IMG/VR virus record: IMGVR_UViG_3300046314_000711
From: a virus
Direction: 5' to 3' (one strand)
DNA: 64,000 nt
Shown: positions 58,405 to 64,000 of the stretch, one piece after another
How the letters are laid out: every line of letters begins with the position of its first letter
Numbering within the stretch: position 1 is the stretch's first letter
Notes under the pieces: model-generated
What the model was told of the DNA's origin: nothing
The model's database searches: none
What the model saw: the letters and a program-made list of their open reading frames with translations, nothing else
Made by a program: the position numbers and the translations under genes

Positions 58405-58898
58405 ACCGGACTAGCGTGAGCTAGTGCTACCAATTGGTCACGCCCAGCTGAGAAGTTGGGCGTTGCTGTTACCGAATACTGTTGGTGGATAGTCGTAGTA
58501 GTACCAGTTTCTATATCAGGTATACCTGCATATACATCGATTGTTAAACTAGGTGGGGTTAAGTGTTTTGTGTAATTAAATACAGCCCCATTTGGCGGTG
58601 CAACCCAATTATCGTTCTCGGTAATTATTGTGTTATCATCAATCTTTTTAAATGACAATGTCCACGGGTACACCGAGCTCGTACCAATTATTACCGTCCC
58701 AGTCCCGTTGGTGTTGATAGACGACGTAGCTACTGCTTGAAGCGTTGGAGATAACTCAATATGAGTGATTGGTGGTGCAACTGTACCAATTCCTGTTACA
58801 GAAACACTGAATGTATAAACTGATTCAGAACCTTCTGAATGCCCCAACTCTGTTGTAGTTGGGTTTAGTGTATATGTTGGTGCTGTACTAGTAGCCAT
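58401..58898 (-). CDS. Hypothetical Thr-rich structural protein
   Basis: 165 aa directly downstream of PAAR gene. Confidence 0.6.
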   Translation of the reverse strand: MATSTAPTYTLNPTTTELGHSEGSESVYTFSVSVTGIGTVAPPITHIELSPTLQAVATSSINTNGTGTVIIGTSSVYPWTLSFKKIDDNTIITENDNWVAPPNGAVFNYTKHLTPPSLTIDVYAGIPDIETGTTTTIHQQYSVTATPNFSAGRDQLVALAHASPV

Positions 58899-58900
58899 AA

Positions 58901-59188
58901 TTATCCTGCAAACACATTAGAACTACCCTGAGCATCAGCAGCCCCGCAACTAATACTGTCACCGATCCTTGCCACCCCAAGATCGTTAGCAAATACTGTT
59001 CCACTACCAGATGCTTGTACTGCACCTGAGTGGACTGTGTTCCCACAAGAGTGGGTTGCCCAACCATCGGACACTCTGTGGACACCAATACCATTGATGA
59101 ATACATTGGAACTTCCTCCAATATTCGGACGGGGTGGTAAACAACCATCACCTGTGCATTGATCACCGACCCTAACTATTGCTGGCAT
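58901..59188 (-). CDS. PAAR spike-tip protein (gp5.4-like)
   Basis: RVGD, GSSNVFING, ARIGD, CG, GSSNVFAG. Confidence 0.93.
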   Translation of the reverse strand: MPAIVRVGDQCTGDGCLPPRPNIGGSSNVFINGIGVHRVSDGWATHSCGNTVHSGAVQASGSGTVFANDLGVARIGDSISCGAADAQGSSNVFAG

Positions 59189-59277
59189 CTTACCTCCATC
59201 GCTTAATTGATATTATTTATCGATTGCACGGCACTGCCCACGCCATGTAAATAAACAAAACCTTTGTGGGTTGTAGT

Positions 59278-59886
59278 ATGGTTGCACCTATTGTTGACGA
59301 TTTCACCGCTTTTGATCAATGCGCTCCACAAGATCGCAAGTGGTATGGCAAGCTCTACGTTGCTCGTTATTTTGGATACAACTGCGGGTCTGGTACAATT
59401 CGTGAGGATGGTGAGTGGATTGTTAGACCAATCACGAATCTGGCTGGACAAGGATTGGATGCTACGATTGGTTGGCACAGATCGGGTGATCCAATCCCAC
59501 CAAACTTTTTCTGGTGCGAGGTCTTCACAGGGCGGCACATCACGATTGACTACATTAGGTCTGGTGAAGGTTGGGTACAATCCCATACGTTCCAAGGGTT
59601 CAACACACAGGATGACCTAATCCGATTTAGTCATTGGAAGCGCGTGGATTATCCGTTCCCCTTGCCATCTGCGCTTCGGGGTGTCGAGAGCGATCACATC
59701 AATCTCGAACTAATAGGTGGGAACATAATCGAAGTGCATCTCCGTCCAAATAGCGATCCAGTCCAGTATGACGAGTTTTGGCCAATTTGGCGAGATGATC
59801 AACCGCCACCGTCATCAGGTAAGTGGGTACGCATCCAAGATCAAGTGACTCACATTGGTAGACTTGGTTTCTATGTTCCAGGTTGA
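59278..59886 (+). CDS. Hypothetical protein, ATP-grasp-like
   Basis: VRPI.NL.G.G, FWCE.F.G.HITIDY, INLE.IG..IIEVHLRPN. Confidence 0.55.
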   Translation: MVAPIVDDFTAFDQCAPQDRKWYGKLYVARYFGYNCGSGTIREDGEWIVRPITNLAGQGLDATIGWHRSGDPIPPNFFWCEVFTGRHITIDYIRSGEGWVQSHTFQGFNTQDDLIRFSHWKRVDYPFPLPSALRGVESDHINLELIGGNIIEVHLRPNSDPVQYDEFWPIWRDDQPPPSSGKWVRIQDQVTHIGRLGFYVPG

Positions 59887-60043
59887 GCACAAACTTGAAA
59901 TCAACTACATTAGACAAATCGGTTCAATAAAAAGTTTTTAAAAAGCCTGTTGACCAGATTTGAAAAGTGTGTTACATTAGACAAATCGGTTCACAAAAAG
60001 TTAAAAACTGACTGTTGAGCACAAATAGTTTACCAAATATAGT
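59883..60043 (+). promoter_or_regulatory. Three tandem sigma70 promoters upstream of the tRNA leader
   Basis: TTGAGC-17-TACATT (59883-59911), TTGACC-17-TACATT (59950-59978), TTGAGC-17-TATAGT (60015-60043); first two followed by identical AGACAAATCGGTTCA. Confidence 0.75.
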
Positions 60044-60094
60044 TAGCCTTTTGGCATTGAGCCATATATACATTAACAAAGAAAGTTTTTCCAA

Positions 60095-60199
60095 ATGTTT
60101 TCCTCTTCCGTGATTATTAGCAAACATACAATGAGCGAACGCTTTAGCGATCGTTCAGATGATATGTGCGCCCTTGTTCACGTCGGAGTAGAATTCTAA
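60095..60199 (+). CDS. Putative attenuator leader peptide MFSSSVIISKHTMSERFSDRSDDMCALVHVGVEF
   Basis: ATG after AAAGAAAG; 34 codons; its 3' part overlaps the antiterminator arm. Confidence 0.65.
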   Translation: MFSSSVIISKHTMSERFSDRSDDMCALVHVGVEF

Positions 60200-60253
60200 A
60201 CAAAGAACTTCTCCAGAATGTAGAAACAAGGGCTCCAAATAGGAGCCTTTTTT
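60170..60253 (+). terminator. Attenuator: antiterminator (60170-60233) overlapping intrinsic terminator (60228-60253)
   Basis: GCCCTTGTT pairs with AACAAGGGC; terminator AAGGGCTCC-AAATA-GGAGCCTTTTTT. Confidence 0.75.
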
Positions 60254-60311
60254 ATTGCCTAATCGATCGAGGTTGGTGCAAAAGATCATTAAAAATTTGC
60301 GTGTGTTTTAT

Positions 60312-60386
60312 GGGGCCGTAATTTAGCGGCTAGAATATCCGGTTTTTACCCGGTCCACGAGGGTTCGAGTCCCTCCGGCCCCTCCA
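60312..60386 (+). tRNA. tRNA-Lys(TTT), atypical (Glu-like body)
   Basis: GGGGCCG/CGGCCCC acceptor, loop TT-TTT-AC, T-arm GAGGG-TTCGAGT-CCCTC, encoded CCA. Confidence 0.8.
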
Positions 60387-60430
60387 TTTCAAAGCGCATT
60401 CAGTGTGAGTGTGTTTCGACATGGATTTAT

Positions 60431-60504
60431 GGGATCGTAATTTAATAGAAAAATACCGTGCTGATAACGCGGCTTCGACGGAGCGTAACCGTCCGATCCT
60501 ACCA
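60431..60504 (+). tRNA. tRNA-Ile(GAT)
   Basis: GGGATCG/CGATCCT, CCGTG-CTGATAA-CGCGG, T-loop AGCGTAA, CCA. Confidence 0.8.
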
Positions 60505-60513
60505 CCATAATAT

Positions 60514-60595
60514 TTGAGTAGTCGACTGTCGGTATCGGTCATTTCCCTTTCACGGAAACGCGTAAGCAGGGGTTCAACTCCCCCTACTCAAACCA
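60514..60595 (+). tRNA. tRNA-Glu(TTC), possible 8/4 fold
   Basis: TTGAGTAG/CTACTCAA, TTTCC-CTTTCAC-GGAAA, GGGG-TTCAACT-CCCC, ACCA. Confidence 0.8.
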
Positions 60596-60725
60596 CTTTT
60601 CTCGCTCATCCTGTGAAGGATCGGCTTCCCTCTGCCCTACCCTACTGCAAAGTGGATGGGTAGCACACCTCGCTTACTGACCGAGGTTTACCAAATAGTC
60701 AGTAAGAATTTGTAGGGTTGCCTGC

Positions 60726-60797
60726 AGTCTGTAAGTGTTCATAGACGCACATAGCACTGTCACTGCTAAAGAACGGGAGCATTACCCGTACAGACTG
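60726..60797 (+). tRNA. tRNA-Asp(GTC)-like, no encoded CCA, extended acceptor stem
   Basis: AGTCTGT/ACAGACT, TAGCA-CTGTCAC-TGCTA, ACGGG-AGCATTA-CCCGT. Confidence 0.65.
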
Positions 60798-61698
60798 CAG
60801 GCAACCTTAGTTGATGAGAAAATATGCATTCGTGGTTTGGTACTACTGCCCACCGAATTGGGTCATCACTCCGGTAGTACTTTTTACCTTTAATTTCAAT
60901 CCATGCGTTATATTTCGGAAGATAGAAGTCTGGATAATACTTTCCTGGCTTTCCAGTTGGATAAGTGAAAGTAAAGTATGTTGTAGAATTTTTCAGCCAT
61001 TCAATATTGTGTGAATCCAGTAATTTTGCAAATGCAAGTTCAGCGCCTGAGTCCATTTGTTGGTCTTTATATGTTGAGCGATGCACAATCGTAGAATTTG
61101 GTTGAAATCCTCCACCTCTTCGAGTTAATAGATAACATTCATTCGAGCAAGTATTTCGTGTCGTAGTAGCAAACGTTTTATTGCACACTTGACATTGTCT
61201 TACTTTTGAATATGGTCCTAGTATTGTACGTACCGCTGCTTTACCATTTTTCGGGTTACGAGAGTGACAGACCCAGATACCTTCTAGATGTAGTTTATAT
61301 ATTCCACCTGGATTTTTCATTACTCCTGCGCGAATTTTTTGCTTAGTTTCAACTGAATGAACATAATCCCTTGTAGCATTAGTGGCGATTCCTGCACAGG
61401 TGTGACTGCAAAATGTATTATGCCTATTATTATATGATAGTGGAGTAGAACATTGCTTGCATATTGTAGGATCATTAGTGTACTCACTACGTCGAATGCT
61501 AACATTACGCTTGTGAGTAGCTGTAGACTTATCTCGTCCTCTTGCGCCATTTGTGATATTTTTGAGTTTAACTTCTTCGGACACTAGTGAAACATCCGGA
61601 AAAGCAATTTTGAAAGTATCTGTAGTATGGGAGTGAGTTTTCAAGTGAGAATTTGTAAGCTGGTTAAATTGTCTAGTGCAAATTGGGCAGGTAATCAT
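60766..61698 (-). CDS. Free-standing PD-(D/E)XK homing endonuclease with Zn fingers, inside tRNA array
   Basis: CPIC..H..H, CxxC..CS repeats, DSGAE..YYPDFYLP..IEIKG; TAAATA at 61723-61728 (minus). Confidence 0.85.
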   Translation of the reverse strand: MITCPICTRQFNQLTNSHLKTHSHTTDTFKIAFPDVSLVSEEVKLKNITNGARGRDKSTATHKRNVSIRRSEYTNDPTICKQCSTPLSYNNRHNTFCSHTCAGIATNATRDYVHSVETKQKIRAGVMKNPGGIYKLHLEGIWVCHSRNPKNGKAAVRTILGPYSKVRQCQVCNKTFATTTRNTCSNECYLLTRRGGGFQPNSTIVHRSTYKDQQMDSGAELAFAKLLDSHNIEWLKNSTTYFTFTYPTGKPGKYYPDFYLPKYNAWIEIKGKKYYRSDDPIRWAVVPNHECIFSHQLRLPAVCTGNAPVL

Positions 61699-61760
61699 AC
61701 GTAATATCAAGAAGTTATAATGTATTTATGGGTTCGTCAACGAACGACCCCGCCAAATTA

Positions 61761-61836
61761 GGATCATTAGCTCAATTAGTAGAGCGCTTGTCTGTCGAAC
61801 AAGAGGTAGCCGGGGCAGAGCCGGTATGGTCCGCCA
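61761..61836 (+). tRNA. tRNA-Asp(GTC)
   Basis: GGATCAT/ATGGTCC, CTTGT-CTGTCGA-ACAAG, T-loop GGCAGAG, GCCA. Confidence 0.85.
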
Positions 61837-61841
61837 AATTA

Positions 61842-61899
61842 AGGATACTAACAGCAAATCCAAACAATTTGACTTTTCTTCAAACCTAAAGTGTATCCT
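61842..61899 (+). ncRNA. Armless tRNA-like element with a Lys-type anticodon loop
   Basis: AGGATAC/GTATCCT outer stem; TTTGA-CTTTTCT-TCAAA inner stem-loop. Confidence 0.45.
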
Positions 61900-61910
61900 G
61901 TTTAATTTGT

Positions 61911-61986
61911 GGAGCCAAGGCCAATCAAGTGATGGCGGCTGTTTGAAAAACAGTGCAGGTTGGAGCGTTACCAACTGGCTCTACCA
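61911..61986 (+). tRNA. tRNA-Phe(GAA)
   Basis: GGAGCCA/TGGCTCT, GCTGT-TTGAAAA-ACAGT, GTTGG-AGCGTTA-CCAAC, ACCA. Confidence 0.8.
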
Positions 61987-62001
61987 CGTTTTTTAATTTA
62001 A

Positions 62002-62089
62002 GGAAGAATATCTACACAAGGTGTAGCACTGTTTCGAAATCAGTTGGAGTCTGTAAGGGCTTGGGGAGCATTACCTCATTCTTCCGCCA
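62002..62089 (+). tRNA. tRNA-Ser(CGA)
   Basis: GGAAGAA/TTCTTCC, loop TTCGAAA, long variable arm GAGTCT-GTAA-GGGCTT, G73, CCA. Confidence 0.8.
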
Positions 62090-62097
62090 ATAGTCAT

Positions 62098-62171
62098 GTT
62101 GTTCCTAGTGTAGTGTCCGCACACCTGTCTGTGAAACAGGTAGAGAGGGTTAGATTCCCCGGTTCAACCCA
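62098..62171 (+). tRNA. tRNA-His(GTG)
   Basis: G-1:C73, CCTGT-CTGTGAA-ACAGG, CCA; two T-T mismatches in acceptor. Confidence 0.75.
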
Positions 62172-62221
62172 AATTATTACATTTGTACACAAATGTAAAT
62201 ATCGCTATAATTGATTTCACT

Positions 62222-62857
62222 ATGAAATTTTCTGAAATGTTTCCAGAAGTACAAGAGCTGTTTGAAATGCCGCAAAATGTATATCCAACGGAATTTGATC
62301 TAACAACTCCTACAAAAAATAAACATTTTGTTGATCAGTTTTTTGCGACGAAAAAAGCTGTAGCTATTAAGCAGTATGGCGATTACACACTGTACGAAGC
62401 TCCTCGCGCCTACGCATTGATTGATAATGACACAAAGCAAGTTGTGTACGCTGTACGATTTACACTCCAGAACAATACGTTTATTGGCCACCAGTGTGCT
62501 CAACAAGTGATGGTGTGGCGCAACACCAAAGTGTTTGAAACAGAGGGACTAGCGAAAGAAATCTTTTTCAATAGTTTGTTGCAACACTATAAAGTGATGA
62601 TCACTGATTCGATGCAGACGGAAGATGGTCAGCGATTTTGGGACAAGCGAATTCTCGAAGCACTTCGAATGGGGTTGAATGTGTATTACATTAGTCTCAT
62701 TCCTCCTCGTGAAATTACCAAAATCAATAACGACCGGGAGTATCAAGCGCTTGCATCAAGTAAAGAAATTTGGGGCAATGATAACAAACACCAGGCTCGC
62801 CGTCTCGTGATATCCTCGGTGCCACTATCGATTCGGTACAAACACATGGTCAGTTAG
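62222..62857 (+). CDS. GNAT-like hypothetical protein inside tRNA array
   Basis: GLAKEIF, ITDSMQTEDGQRFW; leader MKFSEMF.E; TAAATA at 62196. Confidence 0.65.
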   Translation: MKFSEMFPEVQELFEMPQNVYPTEFDLTTPTKNKHFVDQFFATKKAVAIKQYGDYTLYEAPRAYALIDNDTKQVVYAVRFTLQNNTFIGHQCAQQVMVWRNTKVFETEGLAKEIFFNSLLQHYKVMITDSMQTEDGQRFWDKRILEALRMGLNVYYISLIPPREITKINNDREYQALASSKEIWGNDNKHQARRLVISSVPLSIRYKHMVS

Positions 62858-62921
62858 TTAAATGGTATAACTGCGGTTTCATACGCCACTGTCGCAAGTT
62901 CGATTCTTGCACTGACCACCA
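62848..62921 (+). tRNA. tRNA-Met(CAT) (or Ile2)
   Basis: GGTCAGT/ACTGACC, loop TT-CAT-AC, GCAAG-TTCGATT-CTTGC, ACCA; overlaps last codons of upstream CDS. Confidence 0.85.
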
Positions 62922-62929
62922 AGTATTTG

Positions 62930-62957
62930 TTGACTTTTGTGAAAAATAGGGTAAAAT
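62930..62957 (+). promoter_or_regulatory. Sigma70-type promoter (near copy at 63222-63250)
   Basis: TTGACT-16-TAAAAT and TTGACT-17-GATAAT, both containing AAAATAGGGTA. Confidence 0.6.
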
Positions 62958-62985
62958 AACCATATTGACGAACAAAGGACACGAA

Positions 62986-63213
62986 ATGAAAACAACCTTC
63001 ACATCAGTTAATTACATTAAGACTTGTGGTGATCAGTATGCTAAGTGGTCACAAGGTAGTAATGCCGCAATTGATGCTGTGTTGATGGTAGTTACCGATG
63101 ACGCTGGTAATAAAGTGTACAGCGATTGCGTACGAAAAGGTGGAATGTTTATTCGTACGCTTGCTGACTGCAAACGAGCATTGCAAAGTAATTTCCGCAA
63201 TCGCTCTGTATAA
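62986..63213 (+). CDS. Hypothetical early protein
   Basis: SD AAGGA, 75 aa. Confidence 0.65.
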   Translation: MKTTFTSVNYIKTCGDQYAKWSQGSNAAIDAVLMVVTDDAGNKVYSDCVRKGGMFIRTLADCKRALQSNFRNRSV

Positions 63214-63437
63214 TATAGTTGTTGACTTTTTGTAAAATAGGGTAGATAATAGACGCATATGACAAAAATCACTATTCACACTTGTGCTTACAAAGGTTTC
63301 CGCCACATCACCGTGGGCATATACCGCTAAACTGTTTGGGAAGTGCTGGAGCATTTTCTACAAAGGTCAATTGATCGGTGCTACACCAAAAGTTCGTCGC
63401 ATTGAGTTCATCATCGGGGAAACTCTGATTGCTTAAT

Positions 63438-63614
63438 ATGAACAAATACAAAGCTCTTGTCGCAAAATACGACTTCACACTGTGGTATGACCGCAGCCTA
63501 CGGTTGTGGGCGCTAACTGATAATAACGGTCAAAAAGATGCGTATTACTTCACCAAGCACTTGATTGCTTCAGTAACACTTGAAGAATTTGAAAACTTTC
63601 ACTTTAAAGATTAA
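63438..63614 (+). CDS. Hypothetical protein
   Basis: 58 aa, packed. Confidence 0.5.
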   Translation: MNKYKALVAKYDFTLWYDRSLRLWALTDNNGQKDAYYFTKHLIASVTLEEFENFHFKD

Positions 63615-63615
63615 C

Positions 63616-63873
63616 ATGAAATACAAACAAACGATAATTGCAATCTCAGTCCACGCAGAGGGGGTTAATCCTATCTTTGGTGAAGGTGTTACACACGTTC
63701 GTTTGAATGACGAAGCTGGTGGGTACTTCATTGAATTGCAACAAAGTGATGATACTTCAGAAAATGGTGTTGTCAAGTTTGATCCAGCTGAATGGGATGA
63801 GCTCAACGCCGCAGTCAAGTCGCTGTTAGATAGTGTATCGATTGAAACTAATTCTACTGGTATAGTAATGTAA
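63616..63873 (+). CDS. Hypothetical protein
   Basis: NPIFGE.VTHV.L.DEAGG.FI.L.Q. Confidence 0.6.
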   Translation: MKYKQTIIAISVHAEGVNPIFGEGVTHVRLNDEAGGYFIELQQSDDTSENGVVKFDPAEWDELNAAVKSLLDSVSIETNSTGIVM

Positions 63874-63930
63874 GAATATTGGAAGTGTGCACCGTAGGTC
63901 TTACATAGATCATTGTAGTTGAGAGTTTGA

Positions 63931-64000
63931 ATGAAACAATGCCCAAAATGTGGAATTGCTGAATGGATGTACCAACCTGTCCCGTTAGTCTGTGACCATA
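63931..64000 (+). CDS. Hypothetical protein (3'-truncated)
   Basis: MKQCPKCG... Confidence 0.4.
   Translation, partial: MKQCPKCGIAEWMYQPVPLVCDH

Follow-up and report, generated by a model that had tools for sequence, protein, structure and literature searches.

Leader-peptide attenuators of enterobacteria include the multivalent ones of ilvGMEDA and ilvBN (32-codon leaders) and of thr, as well as the trpL, hisL, leuL and pheL leaders, and in the pheST attenuator, which governs the phenylalanyl-tRNA synthetase of E. coli, a leader peptide senses charged transfer RNA (tRNA). Attenuation control has, to our knowledge, so far been known for amino-acid and synthetase genes. The tRNA genes of phages are usually seen as constitutive codon-usage helpers or as replacements for tRNAs destroyed by host defences, and as far as we know the control of their expression is largely unknown; full-text literature searches found no published leader-peptide control of tRNA genes, in phages or elsewhere. 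Here we describe a short leader open reading frame (ORF) and its surrounding RNA elements, which stand ahead of a tRNA gene array in a 64,000-nucleotide stretch of viral DNA (IMG/VR record IMGVR_UViG_3300046314_000711, the whole of which is called the window). The source of the window is a large uncultured phage.

We conclude with considerable confidence that the element, placed between strong early-type promoters and the first tRNA array (array 1), is a ribosome-operated leader-peptide transcription attenuator of tRNA genes. We also lean, less firmly, towards a wider reading in which the genetic code is split between two separately inducible tRNA regulons. Each leader would carry a roster of codons that samples every served amino acid once or a few times, and if any one tRNA ran short, be it through a mismatch in codon usage, through starvation or through an anticodon nuclease of the host, this would induce the remedying array, which would be turned off again on recovery; the whole would amount to a closed-loop controller of tRNA supply on the trp-attenuator principle. 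The original prediction for this locus had invoked the logic of the trp and his attenuators from the sequence of the window alone, and this logic is supported by a paralogous second leader, by the match between codon rosters and arrays, by conservation in a diverged relative (L003) and by folding with a ribosome mask.

Codon rosters of two leaders match their own tRNA arrays

Leader 2 was located by walking the JGI contig downstream of the window. The ORFs and arrays compared are as follows.

60095-60199, + strand: leader ORF 1, 34 codons, ATG at 60095 and TAA at 60197-99, peptide MFSSSVIISKHTMSERFSDRSDDMCALVHVGVEF
60098-60166, + strand: putative sensing segment of leader 1 (codons 2-24), each codon being for an amino acid served by tRNA array 1
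60312-64000, + strand, and on to ~65186 past the window: tRNA array 1 (Lys, Ile, Glu, Asp, Phe, Ser, His, Met, Ser, Ser, Thr, Val, Thr, Arg, Ser)
L020:15389-15830, + strand: leader 2 control unit, on the contig of leader 1 and ~28.8 kb further downstream, followed by tRNA-Trp and array 2
L020:15605-15712, + strand: leader ORF 2, 35 codons, peptide MNAVLLNQQPLCAQPNYWLQQAFVHSFSASSVETL

Array 1 serves Lys, Ile, Glu, Asp, Phe, Ser (four anticodons), His, Met, Thr, Val and Arg, while array 2 serves Trp, Pro, Tyr, Asn, Ala, Leu (two anticodons) and Cys, with a doubtful tRNA-Gln. The codons of the leaders divide along the same line. All 23 of codons 2-24 of leader 1 fall in the array 1 set and none in the array 2 set, and the leader 1 of L003 gives the same result (23/23 and 0) despite five amino-acid changes. 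For leader 2, 20 of the 21 codons at positions 2-22 belong to the array 2 set (W, P, Y, N, Q, A, L, C) and one (Val) to the array 1 set; without counting Gln the figure is 15/21. The original prediction had proposed comparing leader composition with array content, and leaders 1 and 2 each match their own array (leader by array 2x2 table, Fisher p = 1.2e-11).

When 1,321 ORF heads that start with ATG and contain no stop are compared across 93.5 kb of phage DNA (the pool for all ORF-head and motif counts), each leader is the single extreme for its own set, the runners-up reaching 20/23 for the array 1 set and 16/21 for the array 2 set. The pattern is confined to the ORF frame, the remaining two frames being mixed and mostly broken by stops, and codons of the split boxes AAN, CAN and TTN have the third base that suits the array (leader 1, 4:0; leader 2, 0:10; p = 0.001). 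Nucleotide composition cannot yield such a pattern. The constraint ends in both leaders at the start of the putative antiterminator 5' arm (region 2, below), with mixed residues thereafter. No tRNA-Gly was found in either array, and Gly residues are likewise absent from both sensing segments.

An earlier count, in which 20 of the first 24 residues of leader 1 came from the eight amino acids of the tRNAs then recognised in the window, was reproduced; it has a frequency of ~1e-4 among stop-free 24-codon windows and is reached by just one of 883 ATG-started windows, which is leader 1 itself. The codon-level match is weaker than this amino-acid enrichment when in-window tRNAs only are used (13/24, p ~0.02). 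Once the Ser, Thr, Val and Arg tRNAs are counted, however, codons 1-24 of leader 1 are all readable by array 1 tRNAs; the concern that the Ser codons of the leader are not read by the CGA anticodon falls away, since array 1 also has Ser(GGA), Ser(UGA) and Ser(GCU) farther along. Leader 1 alone would be ambiguous, because it has no Shine-Dalgarno sequence and its conservation in L003 is explainable at the RNA level, and what settles the question, to the extent that sequence comparison can, is leader 2 with its complementary roster.

A conserved complement competes with the terminator in both leaders

The candidate elements of the switch are given below; region 1, region 2 and region 3 are numbered in the order of transcription.

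60105-60113, + strand: region 1, CTTCCGTGA, which pairs with 60178-60188 in the ribosome-free minimum-free-energy fold
60132-60157 (arms 60132-38 and 60151-57), + strand: inner hairpin TGAGCGA...TCGTTCA, 100% identical in L003
60170-60188, + strand: region 2, the putative antiterminator 5' arm, with core GCCCTTGTT (60170-78), ACGT (60180-83) and GGAG (60185-88), in ORF codons 26-32
60211-60233, + strand: region 3, the putative antiterminator 3' arm, with CTCC (60211-14), ATGT (60218-21) and AACAAGGGC (60225-33), overlapping the terminator left arm at 60228-60233
60228-60256, + strand: predicted intrinsic terminator AAGGGCTCC-AAATA-GGAGCCTTT plus T run, 9-base-pair (bp) stem and 5-nucleotide (nt) loop, 97% identical in L003
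L020:15645-15664, + strand: internal hairpin of leader 2, at the same place as the inner hairpin of leader 1 and unrelated to it in sequence
L020:15741-15770, + strand: predicted terminator of leader 2, AAGGGCTCC-CTACAA-GGAGCCCTT plus T run, near-identical to that of leader 1

For leader ORF 1, the inner hairpin, the antiterminator core and the terminator, the positions reported originally all agree with the sequence, and the peptide is exact. The terminator outranks all other terminator-like sites on the + strand of 58500-64000. The 9-bp antiterminator core (60170-78 : 60225-33) shares 60228-33 with it, so that antiterminator and terminator are mutually exclusive. That this hairpin sequesters the terminator left arm had been claimed for leader 1, and several lines of comparison uphold the claim. 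The 9-bp core is conserved, and each paralogue has a complement of this kind, with one pair changed in a compensatory way from one paralogue to the other (U-A to G-C; GTT:AAC in leader 1, GTG:CAC in leader 2). In leader 2, region 2 (AGCCTTTGTG) can form 10 bp with CACAAGGGCT, a stretch overlapping the terminator. The extension of the pairing beyond the 9-bp core beats shuffles (p = 0.035 for the window, 0.005-0.012 for L003) and holds in both leader 1 variants, although the stretch between the cores is only ~54% identical.

Leaders 1 and 2 align in the proximal promoter, the terminator and the post-terminator spacer; the first tRNA lies 55-58 nt behind the terminator in both, and the motifs ATTG, CGATCG and TCATTAAAAAT follow the terminator in leader 2 as in leader 1. 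On this alignment the two units are paralogues. Their structured domains and leader peptides are unrelated in sequence, and MAFFT gave no alignment of the two leaders across the switch region; what is kept there is the ORF length and the frame of region 2, which reads GCC CTT GTT CAC in leader 1 and GCC TTT GTG CAT in leader 2. The structure of leader 1 stands far above shuffles (z = -4.8), and in its minimum-free-energy fold the 5' half of the ORF pairs with the 3' half while the terminator stays intact. The inner hairpin is a possible pause hairpin for RNA polymerase.

The palindrome CGATCG is found in the inner hairpin of leader 1 (60146-60151) as well as after both terminators (60264-60269; L020:15775-15780), and is kept in L003; this placement may be chance, because there are 29 sites in the 93.5 kb of phage DNA.

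Folding with a ribosome mask and the proposed mechanism

A model calculation was made in which the ribosome footprint was masked and the transcripts ended before region 4. In leader 1 (window variant) the antiterminator forms with the ribosomal A site at codons 3-15, and in leader 2 with the A site at codons 3-18; it is absent when the masked ribosome occupies region 2, and a footprint over the first 12-15 codons flips the predicted fold from terminator to antiterminator. For the leader 1 of the window, the alternative folds switch with ribosome position in the way that the original prediction had anticipated, and here alone the ribosome-free fold consists of the region 1:2 pairing plus the terminator. 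The stop codon falls in the apical loop of the antiterminator in both leader 1 variants.

We suggest the following course of events. Transcription would begin near 60050, and the 34-codon ORF would be translated as RNA polymerase advances. A smoothly moving ribosome would cover region 2 (60170-88) or reach the stop codon, leaving region 3 free, and the terminator hairpin (60228-50) would then form and bring transcription to a stop at ~60255. A ribosome stalled within codons 2 to about 22, its A site at up to about codon 20, would instead leave region 2 free to pair with region 3 (60211-33) once this had been transcribed; the 2:3 pairing would occupy the left arm of the terminator, and the polymerase would continue into the tRNA genes. 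The codons sensed would be those for exactly the amino acids of the downstream tRNAs, slow decoding of any of which would raise that array, and the paralogous unit with its complementary roster would gate array 2, giving two tRNA regulons, each induced by its own slow codons. The loop would be one of negative feedback on tRNA supply, because the array products would relieve the stall. The analysis establishes the sequence elements, the doubling of the unit, the division of codons and tRNAs between the two copies and that both folds are thermodynamically feasible, whereas we infer that the ORF is translated, that transcription terminates or reads through in vivo and which way the switch works; a link to starvation or to anticodon nucleases such as PrrC or PARIS would be a further step of the same kind.

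Promoters and the spacer before the first tRNA

Upstream of leader ORF 1, and between its terminator and the first tRNA, the following sites were noted, together with the promoter-like sites of leader 2.

59883-59911, + strand: promoter-like site P1, TTGAGC, 17-nt spacer, TACATT; weak (8/12 matches, below the consensus-scan threshold) and absent from L003
59950-59978, + strand: promoter-like site P2, TTGACC, 17-nt spacer, TACATT, TG extension; passes the consensus scan and is kept in L003
60015-60043, + strand: promoter-like site P3, TTGAGC, 17-nt spacer, TATAGT; passes the consensus scan and is 88% identical in L003
60286-60296, + strand: boxA-like 11-mer TCATTAAAAAT, kept in L003
L020:15389, 15459 and 15538, + strand: three promoter-like sites of leader 2, from the consensus scan

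Three tandem sigma70 promoters had been proposed ahead of leader 1; P2 and P3 bear this out, and P1 is the weaker candidate. P2 has a paralogous copy in leader 2 (L020:15459-15487), and P3 aligns with the leader 2 promoter at L020:15538-15567. The consensus scan found no promoter-like site between terminator and first tRNA in either leader. This interval holds the 11-mer TCATTAAAAAT, which is present just twice in the 93.5 kb, once behind each leader terminator (60286-60296 and L020:15799-15809), ~30 nt past the terminator and ~20 nt ahead of the first tRNA; in leader 2 it reads extended as TGTTCATTAAAAA. It may be a counterpart of the boxA of rrn antitermination sites, which it resembles.

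Conservation in a diverged relative

The sole diverged relative retrieved (L003, L004 and L013) has a flanking protein 72% identical to that of the window. A conserved leader had been expected in relatives, and L003 keeps a promoter, an ORF of the same length, start and stop, the antiterminator, the terminator, the spacer to the tRNA and the full roster; the leader ORF is called as a gene in L003, and its array holds array-1-type tRNAs only in the part seen. The region 1:2 helix is also kept in L003, with different sequence. Outside 24 unchanged codons, the other 10 codons of the ORF carry 22 substitutions between window and L003, and 9 of these 10 codons are non-synonymous. Conservation of the ORF was tried as evidence on its own and rejected, other frames being conserved too.

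Searches for further relatives were made in several ways. The DNA of the leader and of 20 kb of the window had no match among 50,697 phage records, and the only match in one metagenome scan was a contig identical to L003. Scans of IMG/VR with the terminator, the hairpin core, a degenerate hairpin and the tRNA-Lys gave zero matches or one unrelated match; a search for related loci with the flanking protein had no match, and no tRNA array adjoins the remoter homologues of the flanking gene (L005-L012). A third lineage (L015), reached through the HNH gene described below, ends before the leader region. No second leader copy was found inside the 64-kb window. The leader 1 peptide had its L003 counterpart as sole match among 1.84 billion representative proteins, and a word-index search with a 40-residue extension of it gave no match.

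The strain variant L018 has a leader identical to that of the window. It differs from the window at 101 positions, 100 of which lie within window 59000-59750 (the upstream gene and a PAAR gene), and is otherwise identical over 5 kb; the cluster looks like a recombination patch that stops just short of the promoters.

tRNA genes and their surroundings

The eight tRNAs originally listed for the window are recovered with different ease. Default ARAGORN finds four only (Lys, Glu, His and Met) and Rfam adds Ile(GAU) and Asp(GUC), whereas Phe(GAA) and Ser(CGA) are called only with a relaxed ARAGORN threshold. Beyond the end of the window, array 1 runs for ~1.2 kb more and adds Ser(UGA), Ser(GGA), Ser(GCU), Thr, Val(UAC) and Arg(GCG).

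The tRNAs that escape default ARAGORN, and in some cases Rfam too (Ile, Asp, Phe, Ser(CGA), Tyr, Asn and Ala; window 60431-62095 and L020:16036-16500), have good acceptor and anticodon stems with unusual T-loops or D arms. Three tRNA-Pro(UGG) are predicted at L020:15936-16413, two of them with odd anticodon loops, one of 9 nt (UUUUGGGGG) and one UCUGGAC with C at position 33. Just past array 1, rsmX gives a weak Rfam match (L017:12772-12902; 29.8 bits against a gathering threshold of 56) that is probably chance.

The control region of leader 1 sits between a gene at 59266-59886 (phrog_3577, function unassigned) and the tRNA-Lys(UUU) at 60312. Within array 1, an HNH-type endonuclease gene lies on the - strand (window 60766-61710), with positional homologues in L003 (71% identical) and L015 (85%). 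The phage also has a gene for an SmpB-domain protein (PF01668; L019:12378-12800). SmpB is the partner of transfer-messenger RNA in the rescue of stalled ribosomes, which is of interest next to a leader that may sense stalling. A neck protein encoded in the window is ~30% identical to the neck proteins of Xanthomonas phage XacN1 and of the Stenotrophomonas jumbo phages.

Alternative explanations

A number of observations weigh against ribosome-operated attenuation of this kind, and three alternatives were considered. In the first, the element is an RNA switch that ribosomes do not read: a protein, small molecule or RNA would bind the domain 60105-60188, and the ORF would be incidental. No Shine-Dalgarno sequence was found upstream of leader ORF 1, and the duplex energy with the anti-Shine-Dalgarno sequence (-0.9 kcal/mol in the window, -0.4 in L003) is weaker than the background median. 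About half of the long ORFs of this phage likewise have no Shine-Dalgarno sequence, and the 5' untranslated region of leader ORF 1 is A/U-rich. The 24 unchanged codons are identical between window and L003 at every nucleotide, and because synonymous changes are absent among them they are conserved at the nucleotide level; the core as a whole is 100% conserved, loops included, and very stable as a structure. Further short leader ORFs, one of them antisense, also stay open in L003. Chimeric 1:2 folds moreover score as well as cognate ones, so that cognate pairs are not clearly favoured, and the comparison comprises two sequence variants of leader 1 (window and L003) and one of leader 2. An RNA switch of this kind nevertheless leaves unexplained why there are two frame-specific, mutually exclusive rosters that match the arrays, and why unrelated structured domains should go with a kept ORF length and region 2 frame. 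Neither leader has an Rfam riboswitch or T-box match, and we regard this alternative as highly improbable.

We give just as little credence to a second alternative, a self-contained gene running from promoter to terminator, whose product would be a small RNA of ~205 nt or the 34-residue peptide, with constitutive tRNA expression through leakage past the terminator or from promoters elsewhere, and no sensing at all. Such a gene would have no role for the conserved complement that competes with the terminator left arm in both paralogues, would leave the codon rosters unexplained, and would sit oddly with two leader peptides that are unrelated in sequence, with a peptide homologue in L003 alone among the representative proteins searched, and with a terminator-to-tRNA interval free of promoter-like sites. 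It does account for strong promoters and a strong terminator that together make a complete unit, and for an ORF called as a gene in L003. The equilibrium folds of both leaders favour the terminators, and a 7-bp terminator stem survives in the full-length equilibrium fold of leader 2; equilibrium folds of the trp leader favour the terminator as well. Promoters inside array 1 (at 62184, 62930 and 63222) could supply the distal tRNAs of that array while bypassing the attenuator.

The inventory behind the rosters also has its weak points. Five identities (Phe, Ser(CGA), Tyr, Asn and Ala) are ARAGORN calls at the relaxed threshold only, which they need because many of these tRNAs carry unusual T-loops, and a clear tRNA-Gln was sought and not found, though leader 2 has five Gln codons. 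In L003 and leader 2 the truncated transcript favours the antiterminator even when free of ribosomes, and these two may, in the folding model, lack a clean off state for the untranslated RNA. Least probable of all is a third alternative, the same ribosome-operated switch reporting general translation capacity or transcription-translation coupling (cf. the pyrBI leader) with the rosters as a side effect, which would suit a heterogeneous sensing segment with no single-codon run and the want of a strong 1:2 alternative in leader 2 and L003, where loss of coupling alone could decide, but which has no need for two exclusive rosters that track the arrays to the third base of split boxes.

Discussion

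If attenuation by a translated roster leader holds, tRNA genes can come under attenuation control, one short ORF can serve as a many-input sensor, and phages would be monitoring the translation state of the host codon by codon. The idea lends itself to direct testing, since for the two leaders carried by this one phage it predicts that defined tRNA depletions have opposite effects. Synthetic biology would, moreover, gain a compact and portable sensor of charged tRNA.

The distant cultured relative XacN1 does not share the layout: its tRNAs are crowded in among protein genes, many promoters lie upstream of them, and they are not preceded by a terminator. In its record (L023, positions 28500-49800) the tRNA genes lie in the terminal repeat among small ORFs, with a GTP pyrophosphokinase gene just upstream.

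The leader element is not a sequence member of the Rfam leader families: against the Trp, His, Thr, Leu and Phe leader families leader 1 had no match, and leader 2 matched Phe_leader at 32.9 bits, below the threshold of 55. The T-box leaders (RF00230) likewise respond to tRNA status through a choice between terminator and antiterminator, and no match to them was found at E-values up to 1 for leader 1 and up to 0.1 for leader 2. T-box leaders bind uncharged tRNA directly and need no ORF, whereas the frame-specific roster found here points to ribosomes.

The likeness to the ilv and thr attenuators is closer. As in these, a short leader ORF of similar length goes with a terminator before the first gene and with an antiterminator that overlaps the left arm of the terminator, codons are positioned such that a stall would free region 2, and several amino acids would be sensed. 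The differences lie in what is controlled and in how much is sampled. The controlled genes here are tRNA genes and not biosynthetic enzymes; the roster comprises 11 (or 8) amino acids, mostly with a single codon or a few codons each in place of runs; two leaders share out the code between two arrays; and the element comes from a phage and lacks a Shine-Dalgarno sequence. The pheST attenuator offers a parallel in purpose, since there too a leader that senses charged tRNA controls a component of translation that relieves the shortage; pheST answers to one amino acid and controls a protein-coding operon, while the leaders described here would answer to many amino acids and control the tRNA genes themselves.

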